Source: Candidatus Latescibacterota bacterium
GTDB taxonomy: Bacteria; Latescibacterota; UBA2968; UBA8231
Assembly (NCBI GenBank): GCA_965203175.1
Contig: OZ241867.1
Span: 736,001 to 800,000, forward strand
Length of the DNA stretch: 64,000 bases
Direction: 5' to 3'
A program made the translations under genes and the position numbers. Positions 20,336 through 55,254 of this stretch are shown piece after piece (the stretch's first letter is position 1; each line of letters opens with the position of its first letter). Under the pieces are notes generated by a model. The model did no database searches. It saw nothing but the letters and a program-made list of their open reading frames with translations, and was not told the origin of the DNA.

Positions 20336-21136
20336 TCAATCGCCCGCCAGAATCGGGTGCAGCGGATGATCCCAGGGGCCGCCGGCTTCCATCTCGTCGG
20401 CCGCGCCAGCCGCGTCGTGCGTCCCGGTAAACGTGGTGTAATCGGGCATGTAGATAATGGCAAACGCGCGGCGCGGCGCAGCGGTCTGGTTGGGACCGGC
20501 GTAGTGGAAGGTGCAGCCGTGGTGGAAGGTAATGCCGCCGGCTTTCATGTCCATGGTCACCGGCTCGGGCACGTCGTAACCCTGTTCCTTCATTTTATCG
20601 ACGATACTCTCGCCAGCAACGCCTAATTTGATCGGTTCGAGCCGCTCGTACTGGTGCGAACCAGGCACAAAGTGGAGGCAGCCGTTGTCTGCGGTCACGT
20701 CGTCCACTGCAATCCACGCCGACAGCGCGCCGACTGGGTCCATCGGCCAATAGGGAGCGTCCTGATGCCAGTTCGTCTCCTTGCTCGTTTGGCCAGGCGG
20801 CTTGATCATCGCGTGATCGTGGTAGATGCGCACGTGGCGGCAGCCGCTCAGGCGGCGGGCGGTCTCGGCCAAGCGCGAATGGAAGGCGATTTCCTTGGCG
20901 TCCGGATAGTCGGTCCAGAGATTGACCATCTGATTGAAAACGCGCTCGTACTCTTCCGACCCGCGGCCATCATTCTCGGCCCCTCTGATGCGGGCGCGAT
21001 GCGTGTCGATGGCGTGGTCAATGGCTTGGCGCAGCGAAGCGATCTCCTCGGCGGAGAAGAAGTGCTCGTAGCGGATGTAGCCGTTTTGCTGAAAGAATTC
21101 GGCGTCGGCTGGCGTCGCCGGGCTTATTGTAGGCAT
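20336..21136 (-). CDS. PhyH-family dioxygenase
   Basis: FFQQNGY, WHQD (HxD), SAWIAVDD, NGCLHFVPGSH and FHHGCTFH. Confidence 0.9.
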   Translation of the reverse strand: MPTISPATPADAEFFQQNGYIRYEHFFSAEEIASLRQAIDHAIDTHRARIRGAENDGRGSEEYERVFNQMVNLWTDYPDAKEIAFHSRLAETARRLSGCRHVRIYHDHAMIKPPGQTSKETNWHQDAPYWPMDPVGALSAWIAVDDVTADNGCLHFVPGSHQYERLEPIKLGVAGESIVDKMKEQGYDVPEPVTMDMKAGGITFHHGCTFHYAGPNQTAAPRRAFAIIYMPDYTTFTGTHDAAGAADEMEAGGPWDHPLHPILAGD

Positions 21137-43867: not shown

Positions 43868-46198
43868 TCACTCCTCCGGCGGCACCAAGCGCTGCGTCGT
43901 CTCCGCCCGGTCGCGTATCTCCTGCCAATCCCACAACTGAGGTATGAATTCCACATCGGCCCAAAGCTGGGCTTGGTCGGCGTAGTGCGGGCTAGCCGGG
44001 TGGCCGGAGGCCCCCAGCGGCGCGATCCAGCGCGAGCGGGTCCAGTCGGAGGGATCGAAGATATAGCGGTTGACCGAAAGACCCGTAACTGTGAAGTCGT
44101 CGAAGGCGTAGCTGCCGGCTAGGGGCGTATCGCCATCGCCGTGGACGGAGAGCGAAGGGGGGTCGAGAAAGGAAGCGGCCTCGGGAAAAACCACAGAGAA
44201 TGGGTGCTGAGGTCGGGTGCAGTGCAATCGGCCCCAACTCCATTGGCTCATGTCGTCGCCAAGAGCCTCTTTGAGAGCAGCGAGCGCGCCGGTCAAGGCC
44301 CCGGTCAGAGCCTGGGACCAAGTTTGACCGGACGGTAGCAGTGCCGTATCGCCGCGCTCAATAGCGAGAGTCGCTTCGAGGGTGATGAGACGCCAGTGGG
44401 CGTCGCCGCCAGCCTCTGCGAGCAAGGTCATGGCGTCGCCGCCAAATAGGTTCTGCGCGATGTGGTAGCCAAGTAGGGCGCGGGTTTGCGCATAGATCGT
44501 CGGCTGGACTTGGTCGCGGTCCATCCGGCAGTCCCACTGGCGCAGCAAATCGAGAGCTTGGGCGCAGTCGGCGTCGGGCGGATCGATGGCGAGCAAGGCC
44601 CGCGTAAAGACCTGGGCCGGCAGCGAGACGCATTCGGCGTGGATGCGGCCCATCGCCTCGGGCGTGGCCGTGCCCTTTGCCAGTTCGAGAATGCGGGTCT
44701 GGATGCGGCGGGCGCGGTAGTCGGGGCTAAAGACGAGCCCGACGTAGTAGGGATAATCCGGGCCGGTCACGCGCTGGTTGCAGGTGATGGCATAGCCCGT
44801 TGCGGGGTCTATGGCCTTGGGCAACTCGGCGTGGGGGATGTAGCCCTGCCACTCGTGCTCGCCGCTCCAGCCGGGAACGGCGCGCCAGCCGTTTGCAGCC
44901 TCGCGCACCGGGATCCGGCCCTCGTGCAGATAACCGAAGCAGCCGTGGACATCGGCGACGGCGTAGTTGTTGACGCGGTCGTTCCAGCGGGCGAAAGCTT
45001 GGTGCAAGTCCTCGACCGAGCGGGCGCGCATGGCATCGCGGGCCGCGTCGGCCCAAGGAGTACCTTCGATGAGGCCGGGGTCGCTGATGGCGATGGCCTG
45101 ACCTTTGCGCGGGTCTCCAGCGATGATAGGTCCGTGGTGGGTAATGACGACCTCAGCGGTAACGGATGCCGCGCCGCGGACGTGGATTTCTTCCCGCAGG
45201 ATTTCCGCTGGCCGCCACGCGCCGCTGAATTCGTACTCCAAGCCATCGGCCGTTTCGCGAAAGCGCTCGACGAACAGATCTTGGGTATCTGCACTGCCGT
45301 AGGTCATGCCCCAAGCCACGTACTCGTTGTGGCAAAAGTGCAGGGTGCCGGGGACGCCGGGCACAGAATAGCCGCTGACGGCGAAGTCGGGGCAGGCGAT
45401 ATGGACTTGGTAATAGACGGAAGGAGTGTCGAGGCCGCGGTGTGAGTCGCCGGCCACCAGCGGCAAGCCCGAATCCGTGTACTCTCCCGCGATGGACCAC
45501 GCATTGGAGCCGGGGTCGGTCTCGCGGCTGAGGGCCGTGAGGCCGTCGAGAGGTTCTCCCTGGTACTCAGCGCCGGGAGGCACGGTGAGCAGGTGGCCTT
45601 GGGGATAGCCTTTGATTAACTGAGCAAGGTTCGCGGCCACAATACTGTAGCCGGACTGCTCAGGGCCGACGACTTGGGCCAGACGAGTGCGCCAGAGCTT
45701 GGATTCAAAGGTGCCGAGCAGGCTGTTGCGCATCTTGTACACAGCGAGGCAGTGCCAGCTTTCCCACGGCTCGGGGCGCTGGCCGAGGAGTTGGTACTCA
45801 ACAGGCAGGGCCGTTGTCGTCGCCAAAAAGGCGTTGACGCCAGCGGCGTACGCGTCGAGCATGGCGCGAGCTTGGGGACTGGACGCTTCGTAGTCCAACT
45901 TGGCGGTGCGGCCCATGCCCGCGGCGCGCAAAAGGCGGTCGCGGTCCAGTCCTGCAGGGCCAGCCCATTCAGACCAGCGGCCCAAAGCCTGATGGCGATC
46001 GAAGTCCATATGCCACAGGCGGTCTTGAGCCGTGGCAAAGCCCTGAGCGAAGAACATATCGGCTTCGCCTTCAGCTTGGATATGGGGGATTCCCCAAGGA
46101 TCGCGGTGGATGGTGACGGTATTTTCAAGGCCCTCGCAACACTGGGTGCTTTCGAGGTCGGGAAGGGCGGCTTGAAGGTCTTCGGCACTGATAGGCAT
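43868..46198 (-). CDS. Penicillin acylase family Ntn-hydrolase (no signal peptide seen)
   Basis: RDPWGIPHI, AQGFATAQDRLW, GSNAW (beta-chain Ser), AGDSH and GASGHP.SPHYADQ. Confidence 0.92.
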   Translation of the reverse strand: MPISAEDLQAALPDLESTQCCEGLENTVTIHRDPWGIPHIQAEGEADMFFAQGFATAQDRLWHMDFDRHQALGRWSEWAGPAGLDRDRLLRAAGMGRTAKLDYEASSPQARAMLDAYAAGVNAFLATTTALPVEYQLLGQRPEPWESWHCLAVYKMRNSLLGTFESKLWRTRLAQVVGPEQSGYSIVAANLAQLIKGYPQGHLLTVPPGAEYQGEPLDGLTALSRETDPGSNAWSIAGEYTDSGLPLVAGDSHRGLDTPSVYYQVHIACPDFAVSGYSVPGVPGTLHFCHNEYVAWGMTYGSADTQDLFVERFRETADGLEYEFSGAWRPAEILREEIHVRGAASVTAEVVITHHGPIIAGDPRKGQAIAISDPGLIEGTPWADAARDAMRARSVEDLHQAFARWNDRVNNYAVADVHGCFGYLHEGRIPVREAANGWRAVPGWSGEHEWQGYIPHAELPKAIDPATGYAITCNQRVTGPDYPYYVGLVFSPDYRARRIQTRILELAKGTATPEAMGRIHAECVSLPAQVFTRALLAIDPPDADCAQALDLLRQWDCRMDRDQVQPTIYAQTRALLGYHIAQNLFGGDAMTLLAEAGGDAHWRLITLEATLAIERGDTALLPSGQTWSQALTGALTGALAALKEALGDDMSQWSWGRLHCTRPQHPFSVVFPEAASFLDPPSLSVHGDGDTPLAGSYAFDDFTVTGLSVNRYIFDPSDWTRSRWIAPLGASGHPASPHYADQAQLWADVEFIPQLWDWQEIRDRAETTQRLVPPEE
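45632..45658 (-). repeat. 27-nt in-frame hairpin element, copy A (in the acylase gene)
   Basis: Sense strand GAG|CAGTCCGGCTACAGTATTGTGGCCGCG, encoding QSGYSIVAA. Confidence 0.65.
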
Positions 46199-46395
46199 TG
46201 CGTTCCTCTTGCGTTATTGGTTTAGAGTATTCTGCAAGGCAAATGCGTTTGCCGCAACATGTATATTGATACGTTTTAGAATTGGCAGTCGCTTCCCAGA
46301 CATCTATCATCATAACTCATAGTCGGCTGAAGAGAAACGACTCGGTCCTCCTTTTTTTATTGCCATTGTTCAGGCTCGCGTTCAGCCTCTAGAAC

Positions 46396-48492
46396 ATGGC
46401 ACTTTTCATCCTCTTCAGGGTCCGAGGCGGCGCAGTTTTGCGTCTATGTCGCCTGCCTCTCGCTCACGCGGCTTCATTCTGGCTTCTCCTACTCATTGCA
46501 GCCGTCCCGACGCGTGCTGAATCACCGGACGACTCCACGCGCGCTGTAACGGCCTTGCGCGTCGATCAGCCGCCGCAGATTGACGGTCATCTCTCCGAGC
46601 CTGATTGGCAGAAGGCCGAGGTAGCCGGGAACTTCTTCCGCGCTCAGCAAAATCGCGGCATGCCCGCACGACTGCGCACGGAGGCATTCGTTCTCTACGA
46701 TGCGGTGGCGATCTATGTCGGCTTCCGCTGTTGGGAGCCGGATATGACCGGACTCCGCGAAACCCTGACGCGCCGCGACACGCGGATTTGGGACGACGCC
46801 GTCGAAGTCATTTTCGATACCTACCACGACGACCGCAATGCCTACATCTTCGGCATCAACACGCTCGCAACGCAGATGGATCAGCGCGTCAGCAACGAGA
46901 GTTCCTTCACCTTTGCCTGGGACGCCTCGTGGGAGGCAGAGGTACAGAAGTACGCAGACCACTGGACCGCTGAATTTGCCATACCGTTGGCCGAACTGCA
47001 GTACGATAAAGAGGGCACCACGTGGGGTGTGAACTTCTGGCGGGCGCACCCCATCGATCAGGAATCCTATTCTTGGTCCGACACAGGCGGTGACTTTGGC
47101 CGCATCTCCGAATTCGGTGAGCTGCGAGGGCTTCAGCTAACCACGGTCACAACAGAGACCGTCCGCCTAGCTTTTCTGCCCTACGCCAGCTACCGCGCCC
47201 TCGAAGATCGCCCCGACGACGGAGATGCTGGCATCGATTTAATCTACCAGCCGTCGGCCAGCCTGATCGGCAACCTGACAGTGTTTCCCGATTTCTCACA
47301 GCTAGAGAGCGACCCAACGCTGATCAACGTCAACGACGAACGCGAGCTGTCTTTGCCCGAACGCCGGCCATTCTTTCGCGATGGAGCAGAACTTTTCGAT
47401 CTGCCTCTGCGCCTGTTCTACACGCGCCGAGTGCAAGAAATCGATTTAGGCGTCAAGGGCACGGGAAAAATGGGCGGCTACACGTGGGCCGCTGTAAACA
47501 CGTACGGCAAGCTCATCGACCGCTACGACGGCAATGCCAAACGACGCGCCAACCTCGTCAACCTACGCCTCAACCGCGACATTGGCGAGCGCACCGTCAT
47601 CGGCGCCATGGCGGTCCACAAGCACCAGAGCGACCGCGATGTGGGCCTGCTGTCCCTCAACGGTCGCCTCGGTCTCGGGCGCGACTGGACCGCCACGAGC
47701 CAGTTCGTAGGCAACTCCACCGGCAGCAGCCCTCATTATGCCTATCACGTCTCGACCGAATGGCGCAACCAGTCGGGTCTGAGTGGTTTTGTCGAACTCG
47801 AAGAGATTCGCGACGGATTTCGGCCGAACGAAACCGGTCTGGAAGACGAGGCGTATCGCCGCGCACGGGGCAGCTTTACCTTCCTCAACGAGTATTCAGA
47901 AGGCAGCACACTCAATGCCCTCGTGCTGCGCGGCCGAGTGTTCCGGCAGACAGACGAGACGGGTCGTCTGCGCGAACAGTACGCCCAAGCTGAGGGGTCG
48001 TTCGATGTGGGCCGTTTCGATTTCTATTCGCTGGCCCGCGTCGGACAACTGCGGGAAGCCGGACGCCTCTGGAACACGCGATTTACTGGTGCCGACCTCG
48101 AATACACATCGACATGGGGTTTCGTCGGTATCTACAACCAGATCGGCAGCCGCCAAGGCATTTTCAACTGGTTTGTCAGCCTAGACGCCAACGCCAACCT
48201 TTTCAGCCGACTGACCATCAGCTTGGCTGCACACCGTTTCGACTGGCGCGACCGACGGGAAACGCTCGTCATGCGCACGACGACGAACTACCAGTTCACC
48301 CGCCACGTCGGTCTGCGGCTGTTCCACGAGCGCGTAATTGAGCAAACCGACGGCACCACTAAGGACAATTTCAACACGGTCTTCGACTATGAATTCACCC
48401 CCGAGAGTCACTTCTTTCTCGTCTTCGTGCGCGACCGCGACCGCACCAAAGCCGCTTTCAGCAAAATCGCCTATCTGTTCGGTGGAATCTGA
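46396..48492 (+). CDS. CBM9-like domain plus DUF5916-type beta-barrel protein
   Basis: PQIDGHLSEPDW, YD..AIYVGF.C, D.VEVIFDTYHD, WTAEFAIP, PDFSQLESD and ERRPFF. Confidence 0.8.
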   Translation: MALFILFRVRGGAVLRLCRLPLAHAASFWLLLLIAAVPTRAESPDDSTRAVTALRVDQPPQIDGHLSEPDWQKAEVAGNFFRAQQNRGMPARLRTEAFVLYDAVAIYVGFRCWEPDMTGLRETLTRRDTRIWDDAVEVIFDTYHDDRNAYIFGINTLATQMDQRVSNESSFTFAWDASWEAEVQKYADHWTAEFAIPLAELQYDKEGTTWGVNFWRAHPIDQESYSWSDTGGDFGRISEFGELRGLQLTTVTTETVRLAFLPYASYRALEDRPDDGDAGIDLIYQPSASLIGNLTVFPDFSQLESDPTLINVNDERELSLPERRPFFRDGAELFDLPLRLFYTRRVQEIDLGVKGTGKMGGYTWAAVNTYGKLIDRYDGNAKRRANLVNLRLNRDIGERTVIGAMAVHKHQSDRDVGLLSLNGRLGLGRDWTATSQFVGNSTGSSPHYAYHVSTEWRNQSGLSGFVELEEIRDGFRPNETGLEDEAYRRARGSFTFLNEYSEGSTLNALVLRGRVFRQTDETGRLREQYAQAEGSFDVGRFDFYSLARVGQLREAGRLWNTRFTGADLEYTSTWGFVGIYNQIGSRQGIFNWFVSLDANANLFSRLTISLAAHRFDWRDRRETLVMRTTTNYQFTRHVGLRLFHERVIEQTDGTTKDNFNTVFDYEFTPESHFFLVFVRDRDRTKAAFSKIAYLFGGI

Positions 48493-48533
48493 AGGAAGAA
48501 ATCGCGCTGTATCCTAAGTCGCTGCCGGCCGCG

Positions 48534-49715
48534 TCAAGCCGGCCGATCGTGGATCGGCCCCGGATGGTCGCGGAGCGAGCCGCCTTGGCGGCCGGTGAGC
48601 GCGGCTTGGATTTCGCCGAGAATGGATAGGGCGATTTCCTCGGTCGTTTCAGCGCCAATGTCGAGTCCGACGGGGCTGAACAGGCGTGCGGCCTGCTCAG
48701 CGCTTGGCGCGACGCCTTCTTTCTGCAAATCGGCGAGCAGGCGCTGGGTGCGCTGATGTGGGCCGAGGACGCCCAAGTAGGCGAGGGGCGCGTCGATCAA
48801 GTCCCGCAACAGAGCTTGATCCTGTAGATAGTTGTGGCTCATGATGACGGCGCACGAGCGGTTGTCGAACTGCAGGTCCTCGGGCAGATGATCGGGCTGG
48901 GCGAGGAGGACTTGCCTAGCCCAAGGGAAGCGCTCGGCGCGGGCATAGGCGGGCCGGTGGTCGGCGACGGTGACGCGCCAACCGAGTTCGCTAGCTAACT
49001 GGGCTAGGGGCACGGCGTCGTAACCAGCGCCGAAGAGATAGAGGGCGATGGGTGGCAGCAAAGGCTCTATGAGCAGGGCGGCCTTGCCGTGCGTCAACTC
49101 GTAGTGGCGCGTGTATCCCGGGGCGATGGGCAGTCGGGTGTCGTCGAGTGTCGCGAGGATTCCACTAGCAGCGTTAAGCGCAATCTCGCGCAGCTCCAAA
49201 TCGGCGATGTCATCTCGGGCGTCTGCGGCCCCCATGCGGAGGCCGGACTGCTCCCGCTCGTCGAGGATCAGATGTTGGCCCGGCGCGGCATTCGTTGCGC
49301 CCTCGGTAGCAAAGACCGTGACGAGGACGCCGTGCCGATTCTCCAGGGCGCAGCCGTGCAAAAAGGTCGGATAATGAAACGGCGCATCTTGGGGCAGGCG
49401 CTCTAAGAGCACATCCACCGTGCCACTACAACCCAGACCAGTACCCCAGAGAATGTCGTCCTCAGAAGTGGCGTCGTAGTGCAGGAGGCGAGGTTGACCG
49501 TCGGCGAAGACAGCTTGCGCGTTTTCGCGCACATCGCCTTCGAGGCAGCCGCCGCTGATGGTGCCCAAGCTCTGAAGATCGGCTTCAATGAGCATGCGGG
49601 TGCCCGGGCCGCGATAGACCGAGCCAGAGGTCTGGACCACAGTGGCTAGAACATAAGACTCACCCGCCTCGTCGAGCACCCGGGCGCGACGGAGAATCGT
49701 CTGCAAGTCTTTCAC
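48534..49715 (-). CDS. xdhC: XdhC/CoxI-family Moco insertion chaperone
   Basis: ATVV...GSVYRGPG.RM, GTISGGCLE, GLGC.G, FGAGYDA, MSHNY and SPVGLDIGAET.EEIA. Confidence 0.9.
   Translation of the reverse strand: MKDLQTILRRARVLDEAGESYVLATVVQTSGSVYRGPGTRMLIEADLQSLGTISGGCLEGDVRENAQAVFADGQPRLLHYDATSEDDILWGTGLGCSGTVDVLLERLPQDAPFHYPTFLHGCALENRHGVLVTVFATEGATNAAPGQHLILDEREQSGLRMGAADARDDIADLELREIALNAASGILATLDDTRLPIAPGYTRHYELTHGKAALLIEPLLPPIALYLFGAGYDAVPLAQLASELGWRVTVADHRPAYARAERFPWARQVLLAQPDHLPEDLQFDNRSCAVIMSHNYLQDQALLRDLIDAPLAYLGVLGPHQRTQRLLADLQKEGVAPSAEQAARLFSPVGLDIGAETTEEIALSILGEIQAALTGRQGGSLRDHPGPIHDRPA
49224..49250 (-). repeat. 27-nt in-frame hairpin element, copy B (in xdhC)
   Basis: Sense strand GAG|CAGTCCGGCCTCCGCATGGGGGCCGCA, encoding QSGLRMGAA. 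Confidence 0.65.
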
Positions 49716-50989
49716 GGCTCAACTCCAAAGCGCCGGTACCAATCAGCCCTCGTCGGTGCGGCGGGCAGGGCTTTCGTCGGCGCAGGTGGCTCAGGCCGTC
49801 GGCGCAGGTATTGCGCAGCCGTCGCACCGCGCAGCGTCATCAGGTATCCAACGAGCGCCTTGAGACTGTCGATATTGTGGGCTGGGGCAAAGAGGTCGAT
49901 GTACGGCAAGGCGGCCTGCATCCCGCGCGTGGCGGGCCGATAATCCGGGCTGCCCAGCAAAGGGTTGAGCCAGATGAGGCAGCGGCTGCGGCGCTGCAAC
50001 GCGTGCATACTTTCTTCGAGGATCTCAATATCGCCGGTGTCCCAGCCGTCGCTGACGATCAGCAGTGCGGTCTGGTGATCAACGAGATCGGCGTGTTCGC
50101 TGAGAAAAGTCTCCAGCGCGGCCCCAATGCGCGTGCCGCCCGACCAGTCCGGCACCTGCGCGGCAATCGCATCCAAACCCGCGCTTAGGTCGTTGCCCCT
50201 CAGCAGGGGCGCGACGTGGTGTAGCGAGGTCGCAAACACAAACGTCTCGATGCGGCGATAGGCGTTTTGGAAGGCGTACATGAACTGGATCAAAAAGCGG
50301 CTGTACAGATCCATGGACTTGCTGACATCGCACAGCAAGACCAGCTTGGGCTTCTGGCGGGTGCGGCGGCAATAAGAAAGATCCAACAACTCGCCGCCTC
50401 GGCGCAGGCTGGAACGAAGGGTGCGCCGCAAGTCGAGGCGGCCCGGCGGACGCGCGGGCCGATAGCGGCGGCTGAAGCGCGTGGCGAGCGCGCGGGCAAT
50501 GGCTTGCAGCAACCGCCCGATTTCCTCCAGCTCTTCGGCGTTAAAGTCCTTAAAGTCGCGCTTTGTATGGACCTCAATGGGGCTGTATCCAGCGGCCTCG
50601 CGCTCCTCTTCGGTCGGCTCGCCCTGTTTGAGCCAATCGCGAACGCTCGTCAAACCATTCTTACCGGGACGGCTGGCACTATCCTTTTCAGAGGCAGAGG
50701 GCTCGGGCTGGGGCTGACCCAACTCGCCGGCGCGATCCCATACGGACCAATAAATATCAAAAAGCGCGTCGAACAGCTTCTGCTCGGCGGGCGTCTTGGC
50801 CAAAACCGTCCGCAGGCTTAGCCGGAAGTCCTCTGGGTCTGACAGGTCAATAGCTGCCAGGGCGCGGAGCGCGTCTTGCTCCTCGCCCAAGGCCACGCCG
50901 GCACGCTGGGCGCGCAACAGGCGACAGAAACCGACCACATTCGCGCTCAACGCGCCGTGCAATGCGATGTCGTCGATCTTGTGGTTCAT
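49712..50989 (-). CDS. coxE: vWA-domain CoxE-like protein
   Basis: LDLRRTLR, LCDVSKSM (MIDAS), WSGGTRIG, VSDGWDTG and WLNPL. Confidence 0.9.
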   Translation of the reverse strand: MNHKIDDIALHGALSANVVGFCRLLRAQRAGVALGEEQDALRALAAIDLSDPEDFRLSLRTVLAKTPAEQKLFDALFDIYWSVWDRAGELGQPQPEPSASEKDSASRPGKNGLTSVRDWLKQGEPTEEEREAAGYSPIEVHTKRDFKDFNAEELEEIGRLLQAIARALATRFSRRYRPARPPGRLDLRRTLRSSLRRGGELLDLSYCRRTRQKPKLVLLCDVSKSMDLYSRFLIQFMYAFQNAYRRIETFVFATSLHHVAPLLRGNDLSAGLDAIAAQVPDWSGGTRIGAALETFLSEHADLVDHQTALLIVSDGWDTGDIEILEESMHALQRRSRCLIWLNPLLGSPDYRPATRGMQAALPYIDLFAPAHNIDSLKALVGYLMTLRGATAAQYLRRRPEPPAPTKALPAAPTRADWYRRFGVEP

Positions 50990-51882
50990 CGTTCCGGAGC
51001 CAGCTTGGCGCGGACCCCCAATCCTTCTAAGAACTCGGCCAGCGATTGCTTCACCTGCGCCACGTCGCGTTGGTCCTTGAACACAATGCCCAAGGTATCC
51101 GCCACGACCTCGAGGTCGAGGTGGTGCTGGTGCAGGGCGACGAGGGCCTTGGCCCAGTCGAGGGTTTCGGCGACGCCGGGGACCTTTTCGAGGCGCTGCA
51201 TGCGGATCTTTTCCATGAAGCGGCAGATCTGTTCGGCGAGCTGGATGTCGATCCCATTCACCTTGCGGCGCACGATCTCCACTTCCTTGTCAAATTCCGG
51301 GTAGTCGATCCACAAGTAGAAGCAGCGGCGGCGCACGGCATCGGAAAGCTCGCGGGTGCGATTGCTAGTCAGGATTACGTGCGGCCGCGCCGCCGCGCTG
51401 ATGGTGCCGATTTCGGGGATGGTAATCTGCCAGTCGGACAGCACTTCGAGGAGAAAGCTCTCAAATTCCTCGTCGGCCCGGTCGAGTTCGTCGATCAGCA
51501 GCACCGGCGGGACGGGCTGGGTGATGGCTTGGAGCAAGGGGCGCTTGAGCAGGAAGTCCTCGGAAAAGAGGTCGGCCTCGCGCTCGGCTAGGGGGCGTTG
51601 GCTCTTCTCGTCGAGCTTGATGTGCAAAAGCTGGCGCTGGTAGTTCCACTCGTACAGCGCGGCGTGGGCATCTAGCCCCTCGTAGCACTGCAAGCGGATC
51701 AACTCGGTGTCGAGGGCGCGGGCTACGACCTTGGCGACCTCGGTTTTGCCGACGCCAGCCGGCCCCTCGATGAGCAAGGGACGCTCCAAGGTCTGAGCAA
51801 GGTACACGGACATGACAACTTGGCGATCGGCGACATACCCGTGCTCGGCGAGCATCTCTTGGATCGCGTCAGTGGTACTCAT
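50986..51882 (-). CDS. coxD: MoxR-family AAA+ ATPase CoxD
   Basis: EGPAGVGKTE, RLQCYEGLD, YEWNY, LLIDELDRAD and KVPGVAETLDW. Confidence 0.9.
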   Translation of the reverse strand: MSTTDAIQEMLAEHGYVADRQVVMSVYLAQTLERPLLIEGPAGVGKTEVAKVVARALDTELIRLQCYEGLDAHAALYEWNYQRQLLHIKLDEKSQRPLAEREADLFSEDFLLKRPLLQAITQPVPPVLLIDELDRADEEFESFLLEVLSDWQITIPEIGTISAAARPHVILTSNRTRELSDAVRRRCFYLWIDYPEFDKEVEIVRRKVNGIDIQLAEQICRFMEKIRMQRLEKVPGVAETLDWAKALVALHQHHLDLEVVADTLGIVFKDQRDVAQVKQSLAEFLEGLGVRAKLAPER

Positions 51883-52074
51883 TAAACCTCTCTCGTTGCG
51901 CAGTATAGTGTCCTATTCGCCGCCTGCAACGCTTATCACAGGCGGGTCAAGTCCCTTAATATCACGCGCCGACTTCCGTACAGCAAGAACGCGCCCGCCG
52001 CGCCTGACATTGCCCACCGCTAGGGATTCTCTATATTCTCAAGTCTCTTTAACTCCGTCTGTGGATGCCTTTGT

Positions 52075-53124
52075 ATGGCCCTTGAAACATCCGCCAAAAC
52101 CGAGTTAGTGCGCGACCTTTTGGGCCGCCCGCTGGCCTCTTTGCGCGTGTCGGTAATCGACCGCTGCGACCTGCGCTGCCAGTACTGCATGCCCGAAGAG
52201 CACTACACTTGGCTGCCGAGTGAAGATATTCTCAACGCCTCCGAGCTCGAGCGCGTAGTCGATGCCTTTTGCCAAGTTGGCGTCCGCAGCGTGCGCCTGA
52301 CCGGCGGCGAGCCGCTGTTGCGCGCCGATCTACTCGAACTCATCGCCCGACTCACACGACTACCGCTGGTCGAGGACCTAGCGCTGACGACCAATGCGAG
52401 GCGATTGGCGCACCGGGCTGAGGCGCTGCGAGAAGCCGGGCTGCGGCGGATCACCGTCAGCTTGGACTCGCTGCAATCGGCGCGCTTTGAGGCACTGACG
52501 CGGAGAGCCGCGCACGCCAAGGTCCTGGAGGGAATCCGCGCCGCCGCCGCGACTGGCTTTGACTCAATCAAAATCAACTCGGTCGTGATGCGCGGCTTCA
52601 ACGACGACGAGTTGGTGGATCTGCTCGAATTCGGACGGGAGATAGGCGCAGAGGTCCGCTTCATCGAGTACATGGACGTCGGCGGGGCCACCCACTGGTC
52701 GCTCGGAGAGGTGGTGTCGCAGCAGGAGATGCTAGCGAAGCTGGAGGCGCACTACGGCCCTATCGAGCGCGAGGCAGGGCGTGGTTCTGCACCCGCAGAG
52801 CGCTTCCGCCTGCGCGACGGCACGAGCTTTGGCATCGTCGCGTCGGTCACCGAGCCGTTTTGCGGAGCTTGTGATCGCAGCCGATTGACAGCCGACGGCC
52901 TGTGGTACTTGTGCCTCTATGCCCAGCAGGGCACTGACCTGAAGCCTTTGCTGCGCAACGGAGCGGACCGCGAGCAACTGGTGCGACACATTCGCGCGGG
53001 ATGGGCGGGACGGACGGACCGCAGCGCCGAAGAACGGCGAGAAGATCCACATCGCGGCGTGCTCTATCAAGTCGCAGAATTGCAAGCCGATCCGCACCGC
53101 GAGATGCACACCCGCGGCGGTTGA
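52075..53124 (+). CDS. moaA: GTP 3',8-cyclase
   Basis: LRVSV.DRCDLRCQYCMP, RLTGGEPL, RFIEYM, FCGACDR.R...CL and C-terminal RGG. Confidence 0.95.
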   Translation: MALETSAKTELVRDLLGRPLASLRVSVIDRCDLRCQYCMPEEHYTWLPSEDILNASELERVVDAFCQVGVRSVRLTGGEPLLRADLLELIARLTRLPLVEDLALTTNARRLAHRAEALREAGLRRITVSLDSLQSARFEALTRRAAHAKVLEGIRAAAATGFDSIKINSVVMRGFNDDELVDLLEFGREIGAEVRFIEYMDVGGATHWSLGEVVSQQEMLAKLEAHYGPIEREAGRGSAPAERFRLRDGTSFGIVASVTEPFCGACDRSRLTADGLWYLCLYAQQGTDLKPLLRNGADREQLVRHIRAGWAGRTDRSAEERREDPHRGVLYQVAELQADPHREMHTRGG

Positions 53125-53142
53125 GCCGCACCTTCCCACTAC

Positions 53143-55254
53143 ATGGATTACTTTCGCGCCAAACGCTATTTGGACGCCCTGCCCGACTGGGAGGTCGGCC
53201 GTCCAGCGCTCGGGCCAATCGAGGATTACCTGCCGAGAATGCGCTCCCTGCTGACCCGCCTCGACGATCCGCAGACGCGTTTCCGCTCAATCATTGTCGG
53301 CGGCACCAACGGCAAGGGGACGGTCGCCAGCCTACTCGCCGCTATTCTAAAGGCGCACGGACACAAGGCCGGGCTGTACACTTCGCCACATCTACACACC
53401 CAGCGCGAGCGGGTCCGCATTGACGGCGAGATCCTCAGCAAGGAACAATGGGCCGACGCCGTATCGCATCTCGACGATTGCACCCGCGACTTTGGCCGGG
53501 AGACCTTGGGTTCGTTCAGCAAGTTTGAGGCCCTGACCGGCCTCGCGGCCCATCTCTTCGCGCAACAGGATGTGGAATTCGGGGTTTTCGAGGTAGGGCT
53601 TGGGGGCCGCTACGACGCGACTAACGCTTGGGACTCGGAGCTAGCAGTTCTGACGGCCATCGGCCTAGACCACGTGGACCTGCTGGGCAATACTTTGGAA
53701 GAAATCGCCGCTGACAAGCTGCACATCGCCCGATCGGGTCGCGTACTCGTCACCACGGCGGCGCAGGCACCCGAGGTGATGGACCTAATCCGGCAGACCT
53801 GTGTAAAACAAGAAGTGAAGTTACAAATCGCCGGAACGGAATGGCCCCTAGGCCACCTAACAGGCCATCCAGCAATCTACGCGGAAAATGCGCGGCTGGC
53901 CCTTGAAGCAGCGCAGAGACTCGTCCGAAGACTAGAAGACGAGATAGCGCACCAAGCCGTGGCGTCCCATCACTGGCCGGGCCGCTTTGAAGTCGCGCAA
54001 GAAAAGCCGTTGGTCCTACTCGACGGCGCGCACAATCCAGCGGCTGCCGAGGCGTTGGCCGGAGAGTTACAGCGGCTGAGCGGAGAGCGTCCCGTCGCCA
54101 ATACCGGCGACGCATGGGTACTGCTCGTCGGCGCGGGAACAGGACACGATGCCGCAGGAATTTTGCGTGCCCTAGCGCCGGTGGCACAGCGGGTCTTGCT
54201 GACTTCGTCTGATCATCCACGAGCTCTGGCACCAGCGGTGCTAGCAGACTTGGCACCGGACGGCCTAGCCATAGAGCAGATACCTGCAAGCAGCCAAGCG
54301 CTCAAGCACGCGCGGGCGCTAGCGGGGCCCAAAGGCCGAGTCTGCGTGGCCGGGTCCCTGCACTTGGTAGCGCGGGCGCGGGAGTTTTTCAACCTGCCCG
54401 GCGAGCGCGACGGCATCACCGAAGACATGGCGCTGGAGAATCTGGAGTGCGTTGCCGAGGCGGGCCGGCGACAGGGACTCATCTGCGCGTGGATCTCGGA
54501 CGACGGCACGCGGCTCAAGCTATCGGGCGGACGGCGTCCCTTGCGCTTCTGGCGCAACAAGCACCCCTTCAACGACTACGTCGAAGCCCGCCTCGCCGAA
54601 GACAAGGCATACCAATACGAGGATTTCGCCGCCGCCGGATTGCCAGTCCCCGATACGCTCAAGCTCTTCAACCCCTTAGCCGACGCGCGCTTCGACCGCT
54701 ACAAAACGCACGCCACAGTCGCGGAAATCGTCGAAGAAGTAGTAGCGCGGTTCGAGTTCCCCCTATTGGTCAAAAAGTGCCATAGCTCACTGGCGCAGGG
54801 CGTGTTCTTGGAACACAACGCAGCAGACCTCGGCCAGCGGCTCGAAGCCCTCTTTGCCAACAGCGGCTTTTTAGACAACATCGCGCTAGTGCAGCAATAC
54901 GTAGCCGGGCCGGAATATCGGGTCGTCGCCAGCCGCAACGAACTGTTACTGGCCTATCGCAAGGAAAGCGAGGCCGTGGGCGCAGACGGAGACCTCAATC
55001 CGCTGCATCAAGCTACGGGGCGCGCCGTGCGCGTAGAAGACGCGGCCCTGCTAGCGCAAATGCAACAGCTAACCGCACAAGTGGCCGGTGTGTACTCGCT
55101 CGGTTTTTACGCCATTGACCTCATCCACGGCGCGGACGGTTTCTCCATTATCGAAATCAATCCCAACCCCATGTGCTACGCGTACAACCGCGACAACGGC
55201 CGCCGGGACTTCATTCGGCTATACGAGCGGCTGCTCACCCAATTTGCCCTGTAA
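53143..55254 (+). CDS. folC: FolC (dihydrofolate/folylpolyglutamate synthase) fused to a C-terminal ATP-grasp domain
   Basis: FolC part: GGTNGKGT, LYTSPHL, FEVGLGGRYDATN, LDH, WPGRFE, LDGAHN, AGSLHLV. ATP-grasp part: EDK...GLPVP, FPLLVK, GV, VQQYV, EYRV, IDL, IEINPNP. One uninterrupted frame. Confidence 0.85.
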   Translation: MDYFRAKRYLDALPDWEVGRPALGPIEDYLPRMRSLLTRLDDPQTRFRSIIVGGTNGKGTVASLLAAILKAHGHKAGLYTSPHLHTQRERVRIDGEILSKEQWADAVSHLDDCTRDFGRETLGSFSKFEALTGLAAHLFAQQDVEFGVFEVGLGGRYDATNAWDSELAVLTAIGLDHVDLLGNTLEEIAADKLHIARSGRVLVTTAAQAPEVMDLIRQTCVKQEVKLQIAGTEWPLGHLTGHPAIYAENARLALEAAQRLVRRLEDEIAHQAVASHHWPGRFEVAQEKPLVLLDGAHNPAAAEALAGELQRLSGERPVANTGDAWVLLVGAGTGHDAAGILRALAPVAQRVLLTSSDHPRALAPAVLADLAPDGLAIEQIPASSQALKHARALAGPKGRVCVAGSLHLVARAREFFNLPGERDGITEDMALENLECVAEAGRRQGLICAWISDDGTRLKLSGGRRPLRFWRNKHPFNDYVEARLAEDKAYQYEDFAAAGLPVPDTLKLFNPLADARFDRYKTHATVAEIVEEVVARFEFPLLVKKCHSSLAQGVFLEHNAADLGQRLEALFANSGFLDNIALVQQYVAGPEYRVVASRNELLLAYRKESEAVGADGDLNPLHQATGRAVRVEDAALLAQMQQLTAQVAGVYSLGFYAIDLIHGADGFSIIEINPNPMCYAYNRDNGRRDFIRLYERLLTQFAL
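54088..54114 (+). repeat. 27-nt in-frame hairpin element, copy C (in folC)
   Basis: Sense strand GAG|CGTCCCGTCGCCAATACCGGCGACGCA, encoding RPVANTGDA. Confidence 0.55.

Follow-up and report, generated by a model that had tools for sequence, protein, structure and literature searches.

The 64,000-nucleotide window analysed here is positions 736001-800000 of the single 6.58-Mb contig (59% G+C) of a Candidatus Latescibacterota metagenome-assembled genome (MAG), hereafter G000, and this stretch is found mainly in sponge metagenomes. Three genes in the window each contain a 27-nt hairpin, and it is the nature of these hairpins that concerns us. We consider it very probable that they are copies of a non-autonomous mobile DNA element resembling the repetitive extragenic palindromes (REPs), one that inserts at a GA^AW target without duplicating it, nests in its own copies, decays in place and depends on an enzyme acting in trans. 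A first-pass annotation of the window had noticed three 27-mers on the sense strand of long open reading frames (ORFs), in one codon phase and each directly after a GAG codon, and they are indeed present as it described. The host genes and the element copies within them, in window coordinates, are as follows.

43868..46198, minus strand: host gene of the penicillin amidase family, an Ntn hydrolase (PF01804, E 2.6e-191), called the acylase below
45633..45659, minus strand: element copy in the penicillin-amidase gene, reading QSGYSIVAA (residues 181-189); target CCTGA^AAAC; covariance-model score 40 bits
48534..49715, minus strand: host gene for an XdhC/CoxI-family accessory protein (PF02625 + PF13478), called xdhC below
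49225..49251, minus strand: element copy in xdhC, reading QSGLRMGAA (residues 156-164); target GGGA^AGAC; covariance-model score 45 bits
53143..55254, plus strand: host gene for a Mur-ligase (FolC-like) N-terminal part and a RimK-type ATP-grasp domain (PF08245, PF02875, PF08443), called folC below
54087..54113, plus strand: element copy in the FolC/Mur-ligase + RimK gene, reading RPVANTGDA (residues 316-324); covariance-model score 30.2 bits

In the acylase the insert falls towards the C-terminal end of the alpha-chain region, ahead of the beta chain, which starts at residue 231; in the XdhC protein it separates two conserved blocks (18-110 and 221-377), and in the FolC-like protein it lies within the Mur_ligase_C match (280-405). 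The last of these hosts, 703 residues long, has an unusual architecture in which the Mur-ligase/FolC-like part is fused to a C-terminal RimK-type ATP-grasp.

Orthologue alignment had been proposed in the first-pass annotation as the test of whether these units are insertions, and an indel rather than a set of aligned residues is what the orthologues have at all three sites. Our comparisons cover 31 genomes of the genus, G000 and 30 congeners, which carry the other G-numbers used below. Each window site is a clean 9-residue insertion matched by gaps of exactly 27 nt in orthologues, and the backbones predicted from removal of the units (GPE-NLAQ, DERE-DARDD and LSGE-W) are the state of the empty orthologues. 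The proposed length of 27 nt stood, but the proposed borders did not, since the gaps put the insert one base 5' of the codon-aligned unit, and on the same evidence it is the target, not the element, that supplies the first two bases of the "GAG" codon and the closing A. In a DNA alignment of xdhC from 12 congeners, G000 and its closest relative G003 have the 27 nt and the ten others do not, with the empty site GGGA^AGAC showing no base duplicated or lost.

Across the genus the three sites occur in many states. At xdhC, 25 congeners comprise 3 with a single copy, 2 with a nested pair of 54 nt, 1 with a decayed nest and 19 that are empty; at the acylase, 29 comprise 7 filled, 1 with a nested double copy, 1 with a 9-nt remnant and 20 with a clean 27-nt gap; at folC, 24 comprise 16 with a full-length copy, 3 with a truncated one and 5 empty. 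Ragged remnants occur in G009 at both the xdhC and the acylase sites. On a local tree built from 3.3 kb of 25 genomes (IQ-TREE, quick mode), the three sites require at least 6, 4 and 4 state changes, which fits repeated use of the sites, precise loss or recombination, alternatives that a one-locus tree with several weak forks cannot separate. No indel was listed at the three sites in the DNA contigs of X1 and X2, and two metatranscriptome runs had zero depth at all three.

The empty acylase sites come in two synonymous forms. GAA-AAC is found in all four outgroup-like genomes and in many others, and GAG-AAC in G010, G032, G034 and G038, with G033 and G035 having close variants of it; part of this second group stands beside filled lineages. 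The second form may be the footprint of an excision or simple codon drift.

The gap-defined unit of the window copies runs GCAG...CGC, and the element as a whole can be described over its 27 nt as a tag GCWG, a spacer YC, an 8-bp stem starting CG, a loop GYAT, the return stem and a final C. As had been noted, each sense strand in the window folds, as DNA, into the hairpin, with a stem of 8 bp in the acylase and in xdhC and of 7 bp in the folC of G000. The reported covariation of the stem holds up on a much larger set: among 40 copies from G000, 5 of the 8 pairs show double changes, 50 such cells in all, and of the 320 cells that make up the 8-bp helix 96.6% are paired, a result reached by none of 500 shuffles and far from the 24-48% paired in slid controls. 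A T.G wobble conserved in the main subfamily favours the tagged strand over its complement (-6.7 versus -5.3 and -8.2 versus -6.7 kcal/mol), and in the acylase and xdhC it is the sense strand of the copy, not the antisense, that gives the better fold. Since the tagged strand makes the better hairpin, the active form would be one DNA strand, or RNA.

The xdhC copy belongs to a subfamily with a C-G closing pair (CC..GG) and the folC copy to the one with the CGTCGCCA stem; the loop of the folC copy is inverted (ATAC) and, in G000, one of its pairs is broken. The folC copy is an older, decaying member of its subfamily. Its 16 full-length orthologous copies keep the complete 8-bp hairpin in 6 cases, seven of the eight pairs in 7, six in 2 and five in 1, and every change is one-sided; three further folC copies carry internal deletions. 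Since the stems covary among paralogues and yet the copies inherited at one site lose their pairs, the hairpin serves mobility and not the host. The folC loop is ATAC instead of GTAT, with tag and tail still sense-oriented (window 54087-54113), in 15 of the 16 full-length orthologous copies, the exception being G014 (GTAA); the loop looks as if it had been flipped between the stem arms.

The three window hairpins are members of a family scattered through G000 in about 40 copies. The pattern written down in the first-pass annotation, in IUPAC letters, matches 6 places in 6.58 Mb, all six of which form the hairpin, and the three additional matches pair at the positions that the pattern had left free, with new compensatory stems. 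A consensus allowing up to 8 substitutions finds 34 places. With a descriptor score made of 22 conserved letters and 4 free pairs (maximum 26), 45 places reach at least 20, compared with 2 in the reversed sequence. Five of the 45 were dropped because no hairpin could be seen by eye (1416119, 2737958, 3553311, 3808137 and 4300550), and 363134 was dropped as a duplicate within a 490-bp inverted repeat, leaving 39 copies; these, with one clear member of score 19, make up the alignment of 40 (A2) from which the covariance model, our independent control, was built.

That model finds 37-38 copies in G000 and 2-23 in 23 of the 30 congeners, so that 24 of the 31 genus genomes are positive. It finds none in the 7 most divergent members of the genus and none in 101 genomes from 30 other genera of the class. 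A pattern scan of other phyla gave at least 114 loci among the matches listed, and the MAGs with multiple hits, labelled Gemmatimonadetes or Gemmatimonadota, align to G000 at 79-96%, for which reason we place them with this genus. The remaining records among the matches listed have single hits each, one of them in a Nostoc MAG, and are at chance level (about 10 by our estimate). We conclude that the family arose inside one subclade of a sponge-associated Latescibacterota genus. Rfam, searched over 10 kb around the sites at E<=1, has no match at the sites and a single weak chance match elsewhere.

The copies are unevenly placed: 32 of 40 lie at 0.35-2.2 Mb of the 6.58-Mb chromosome, a span that includes the window, and in complete congeners the listed copies are likewise bunched, within some 1-1.5 Mb. 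Across 0.35-2.2 Mb the cumulative GC skew runs flat, close to its minimum, and this span may be origin-proximal or rearranged. The inverted repeat of about 490 bp mentioned above (355958-356445 and 362804-363290, arms 96-100% alike) has one element copy per arm, and the 6.4 kb between its arms (356-363 kb) encode two surface proteins with leucine-rich-repeat, dockerin, PPC and CARDB domains and internal 66-nt repeats; neither a transposase nor a recombinase was seen in this segment. Counts of 14-mers in G000 revealed no other small hairpin families, the top words coming from coding repeats, an insertion sequence (IS) of about 16 copies and a 99-nt tandem coding array. The IS copies are near-identical (e.g., 29653, 1347464 and 1428930) and share the end word CATGCAACAACGCC, which occurs 32 times; the array of 99-nt coding repeats is long and lies at 2.233-2.242 Mb.

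The flanks of the 39 copies identify the target. Position -2 is G in 34, -1 is A in 24, +1 is A in 27 and +2 is A or T in 30, with nothing conserved beyond, and empty sites read GGGA^AGAC, CTGA^AAAC, GGA^ATGG and CTA^ATTC. Such comparisons of filled and empty alleles show that the element enters G-A^A-W after its second base and that no part of the target is duplicated. Within the unit, the tag positions 1-4 are G in 37, C in 33 (T in 5), A in 19 or T in 15, and G in 30. Because insertions also occur in loops (GT^AT) and in tandem (GC^A), the target is better described, as far as these sites indicate, as G-N^A with GA^AW preferred. A glutamate codon GAA at the target becomes GAG...GCA after insertion.

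The loop insertions are complete elements inside elements. In the acylase of G014 and in xdhC of G034 and G035 a second complete 27-mer lies between T and A of the outer GTAT loop, and in all three nests the inner 27-mer is the xdhC copy of G000, one base off in G035. The study genome has a nest of its own, at 1290449 within a degenerate outer copy, and both units are absent (54 nt) in G041; at 1945053/1945080 two units abut, the second inserted at ..GC^A behind the first. The xdhC site is occupied by different element forms in different lineages, and at its empty sites (G012, G001 and G042) a small hairpin is predicted, CGGG-AAGACG-CCCG, whose loop contains GA^A. No clear fold of this kind was seen for the other two genes (n = 7 folds in all), and we dropped the idea that the target generally sits in a hairpin loop. 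In G003 three or four copies, two of them abutting, are clustered at C54:285925-286222, upstream of a site that has one copy in G000 (1169020), which points to local piling up of the element.

Presence and absence also vary at sites beyond the window genes. The G000 copies at 677487, 678846 and 1286913 face empty sites in G041 and/or G038, with a difference of 27 nt, and the reverse is found at 1331920, 1146257, 1228732, 6254713 and one place in the window, where G000 is empty and relatives are filled, the difference being 27 nt at the first three and 26 nt at 6254713. The window site is this:

21114..21133, plus strand: copy-free site in G000; a congener has a copy within a 39-nt longer stretch

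Only half a copy remains in G000 at 1928436. The closest relative, G003, has 25 copies, about 14 of them at sites shared with G000; at 3 sites G000 falls short by 27-33 nt over the alignment, by 27 nt at one copy, and G000 is 27 nt longer than G003 at two shared sites.

How so many copies could come to rest inside genes follows in part from the unit itself. By our own ORF and codon-score calls, checked against Pfam (which assigned a family to 25 of the 29 host ORFs, besides the three window genes), 18 of the 39 copies in G000 lie deep in ORFs, 6 in the last few codons, 10 at or before ORF starts and 5 in no convincing frame. Of the 18 deep-copy hosts 17 are Pfam-supported: an HTTM protein, an ABC ATPase, two sulfatases, a class-V aminotransferase, a luciferase-like monooxygenase, MutL (in its linker), a hybrid histidine kinase (again in a linker), NFACT, an FG-GAP protein, proteins with type IX secretion tails, a C39-like peptidase and an alginate-export porin, together with the three window genes; one ORF belongs to no family. 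Only one of the element's six reading frames, A2, is closed, by a TGA, and the deep copies use frames S0, S1 and S2 in 10, 4 and 1 cases and A0, A1 and A2 in 2, 1 and 0. Since the length of the unit is divisible by three and all frames but A2 are open, many genic insertions survive as nine extra residues, and they would simply be translated.

The phase shared by the three window copies follows from the target GA^A, which is mostly the glutamate codon GAA: in long ORFs of G000 the G of GAA falls at codon position 1, 3 and 2 in 65, 27 and 8% of cases, and the sense deep copies, at 10:4:1, match this expectation (chi-square p 0.98). Strand is another matter. Deep copies are sense in 15 cases and antisense in 3, compared with 45% antisense expected when the stop frame is allowed for (P = 0.012, post hoc), and copies at gene edges or between genes show no sense bias (6 versus 10, on our own ORF calls).

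The first-pass annotation had offered a minimal REP-like mobile hairpin as one reading of the three units, and the covarying stems, the dispersed family and the empty sites all support it. Single-strand transposition of the Y1/HUH type has four hallmarks: the target is not duplicated, the 5' flank is short and fixed, the hairpin is specific to one strand, and the empty sites are base-exact. Because the element shows all four, we infer movement in that style. An enzyme supplied in trans would recognise the hairpin, with its T.G wobble, and the 5' tag on one DNA strand in single-stranded form, and would cut and rejoin precisely, in the manner of the "peel and paste" of RAYTs (REP-associated tyrosine transposases) and of IS200/IS605. 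The unit would then insert at G-A^A-W, in the loop of a resident copy (GT^AT) or directly behind a copy, and would decay thereafter. An excision scar, another of the readings first offered, misfits a family of 40 copies with nested and tandem insertions.

Several observations nevertheless weigh against this explanation. PF01797 searches of the 31 genus genomes found no mobilising enzyme: 16 genomes have no match and 15 have one, and those free of Y1 include the complete G012, G038 and G041, with 22-23 copies each. A tnpA flanked by copies had been suggested as something to look for, but no element copy lies within 1.5 kb of any of 13 Y1 loci in the genus (covariance model, filters off, E<0.5). 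IS608-like elements show an orientation bias by replichore; the copies here have none relative to GC-skew replichores, the skew being flat where most of them lie. The borders are not perfectly constant either, varying by 1-2 nt: the empty folC sites of G040 and G042 (GGA^GCA), 1331920 and perhaps 1228732 fit a 2-base shift, and the empty site of G041 at 677487 fits a 1-base shift or a synonymous GAA>GAG change. At xdhC the single copy of G000, G003 and G038 equals the unit nested inside the G034/G035 copies, yet the one state cannot be reached from the other in a single step. The descriptor score rewards 4 of the 8 pairs and the flank letters G, A and A, so that the covariation and flank figures lean towards the model. 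Finally, all comparisons are between species and no movement was seen directly, and allele exchange by recombination could yield part of the patchiness.

The proposed link to HUH or RAYT enzymes is not supported. No RAYT was found, and the only PF01797 members in G000 are two IS605-type tnpA genes in tnpA-tnpB units. The end hairpins of both units are unlike the element and no covariance-model match lies there, so we rejected an IS605 link. The Y2 transposase family PF04986 is represented by one fragment (G000 1754569). Weak Y1_Tnp matches (profile positions 24-121 or 40-121) occur in frames of 1203-1288 residues in G040, G013, G039 and G008 and are absent from G000; these frames may include a fused HUH-like domain. 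The family may be the relic of a lost enzyme, the user of an unrecognised one, or moved through RNA. If the 27-nt singlet is itself the complete transposable unit, moved by an agent other than a RAYT or IS200-type Y1 enzyme (an unrecognised enzyme, or an RNA route as the sense-strand bias suggests), a proposal that we advance tentatively and think rather unlikely, then few mobile elements whose insertion anatomy is known to the base would be smaller, and proteins of sponge symbionts would routinely gain 9-residue insertions from it.

Spread through an RNA intermediate, with the hairpin RNA inserted into transcripts or reverse-transcribed and recombined back, would account for the excess of sense copies in genes (15 versus 3, P = 0.012) and for a G.U wobble that makes the sense strand the better hairpin, and no DNA transposase for the element was found. 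Such a route has been proposed for the cyanobacterial SDR elements. On the other hand, three genic copies are antisense, edge and intergenic copies are without sense bias, peptide-level selection would explain the bias that exists, and no reverse transcriptase is linked to the element, none having been searched for; we consider this route improbable. Another reading is a cis element kept by selection in host mRNA: a micro-intron, a translational bypass signal, or a site for processing, stability or protein binding. Against it, presence varies among close species within one gene, orthologous copies lose pairs by one-sided changes and suffer deletions, and the host genes are unrelated. Nor is removal of the unit necessary, as all five frames used are open, and no Rfam family matches at the sites. 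The predicted fold would give a stable hairpin in sense transcripts, and REPs elsewhere are reported to act on mRNA in the survey of Di Nocera et al. (2013; PMC3733652). We hold selection on the mRNA to be very improbable.

The last possibility involves no transposition at all: a few ancient hairpins would have been spread by recombination, duplication and gene conversion, with slippage making the tandems and nests. Interspecies recombination would also produce patchiness on the local tree, and the copy pair 356114/363134 is plainly a passenger of the 490-bp inverted duplication. But some 40 unlinked sites share no flank beyond G-A...A-W, the empty sites are base-exact with a difference of 27 or 54 nt, identical 27-mers sit at unlinked loci in different genes and different species, and slippage cannot make a nest in a 4-nt loop. 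We give this explanation hardly any credence.

If the hairpins are copies of a REP-like mobile element, as we favour, the genus offers a useful view of how very small repeats behave. The mobility of the smallest ones, REP singlets and SDRs, is still argued largely from copy statistics, and here about 31 genomes provide base-exact filled, empty, nested, tandem and decayed states that fix borders, target and life cycle, in a family that persists in genomes without any Y1 transposase gene. Mobile DNA would here be creating 9-residue inserts in enzymes such as penicillin amidase, XdhC, a FolC-like ligase, MutL, an ABC ATPase and sulfatases, inserts that annotation would otherwise take for lineage-specific loops. 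There is also a caution in this, as a shared reading phase can stem from target preference alone.

The closest comparison is with the REPs. In the survey by Di Nocera et al. (PMC3733652), these are units of 20-40 bp with a GTAG tag that degenerates to GYAG in certain families; a dinucleotide spacer and short tail mark some of them (GTAG-1/2); they have complementary stem subfamilies and G.T pairs; single REPs stand in frame inside ORFs of several species, often in repair genes; and REPs with a CGTC tag lack a dedicated transposase, the short RPE-4 and RPE-6 being classed there. The Latescibacterota element is likewise a short stem-loop with an unpaired 5' tetranucleotide tag, dinucleotide spacer and short tail, with complementary subfamilies, G.T pairs and in-frame units in ORFs, including one in a DNA-repair gene, MutL. 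It differs from the GTAG REPs in its tag GCWG, with C at position 2 in 33 of 39 copies, which nevertheless overlaps the GYAG variant. It also differs from REPs in number and place, with 2-38 copies per genome and 18 of the 39 G000 copies deep in genes, not mostly extragenic. Bertels and Rainey (2011; PMC3116915) describe the mobile unit as inverted doublets (REPINs) associated with RAYTs; the present element forms no inverted doublets, the G000 copies less than 1 kb apart being all on the same strand (1290404/1290449 and 1945053/1945080), and unlike a REP/RAYT system it has no RAYT and no Y1 gene flanked by element copies. Its phylum lies outside the eight of the survey in PMC3733652. Our literature searches gave no report of such elements from Latescibacterota; the one paper on sponge members of the phylum that they returned mentions, in the part accessible to us, only CRISPR and protein repeats.

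The first-pass annotation had set the unit apart from the palindromic elements of Rickettsia (RPEs) as being several times shorter, which was incomplete, for single intragenic REPs of 20-40 bp are published (PMC3733652). Like the RPEs the element is palindromic and lies in frame in protein genes, where it would here be translated; unlike it, they have a CGTC tag and an alphaproteobacterial host. RPE-1 is several times longer than the 27-nt element. Another likeness, in behaviour only, is to SDR1-8 of Nostoc and relatives, which Elhai et al. in 2008 reportedly described as hairpins of 21-27 nt with nested self-insertions. The element resembles the SDRs in being a tiny hairpin with compensatory changes, self-nesting, confined to a narrow clade and without a known transposase; it belongs to another phylum, is not known to be related to them in sequence, and is distinguished by its 3-4-nt target and frequent in-frame coding insertions. 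From IS200/IS605 it differs in having one hairpin instead of two subterminal ones and in the many element-bearing congeners that lack Y1, but it shares with that family and its non-autonomous derivatives the absence of target duplication, a short specific motif, a strand-specific DNA hairpin and clean empty sites that would suit precise excision.

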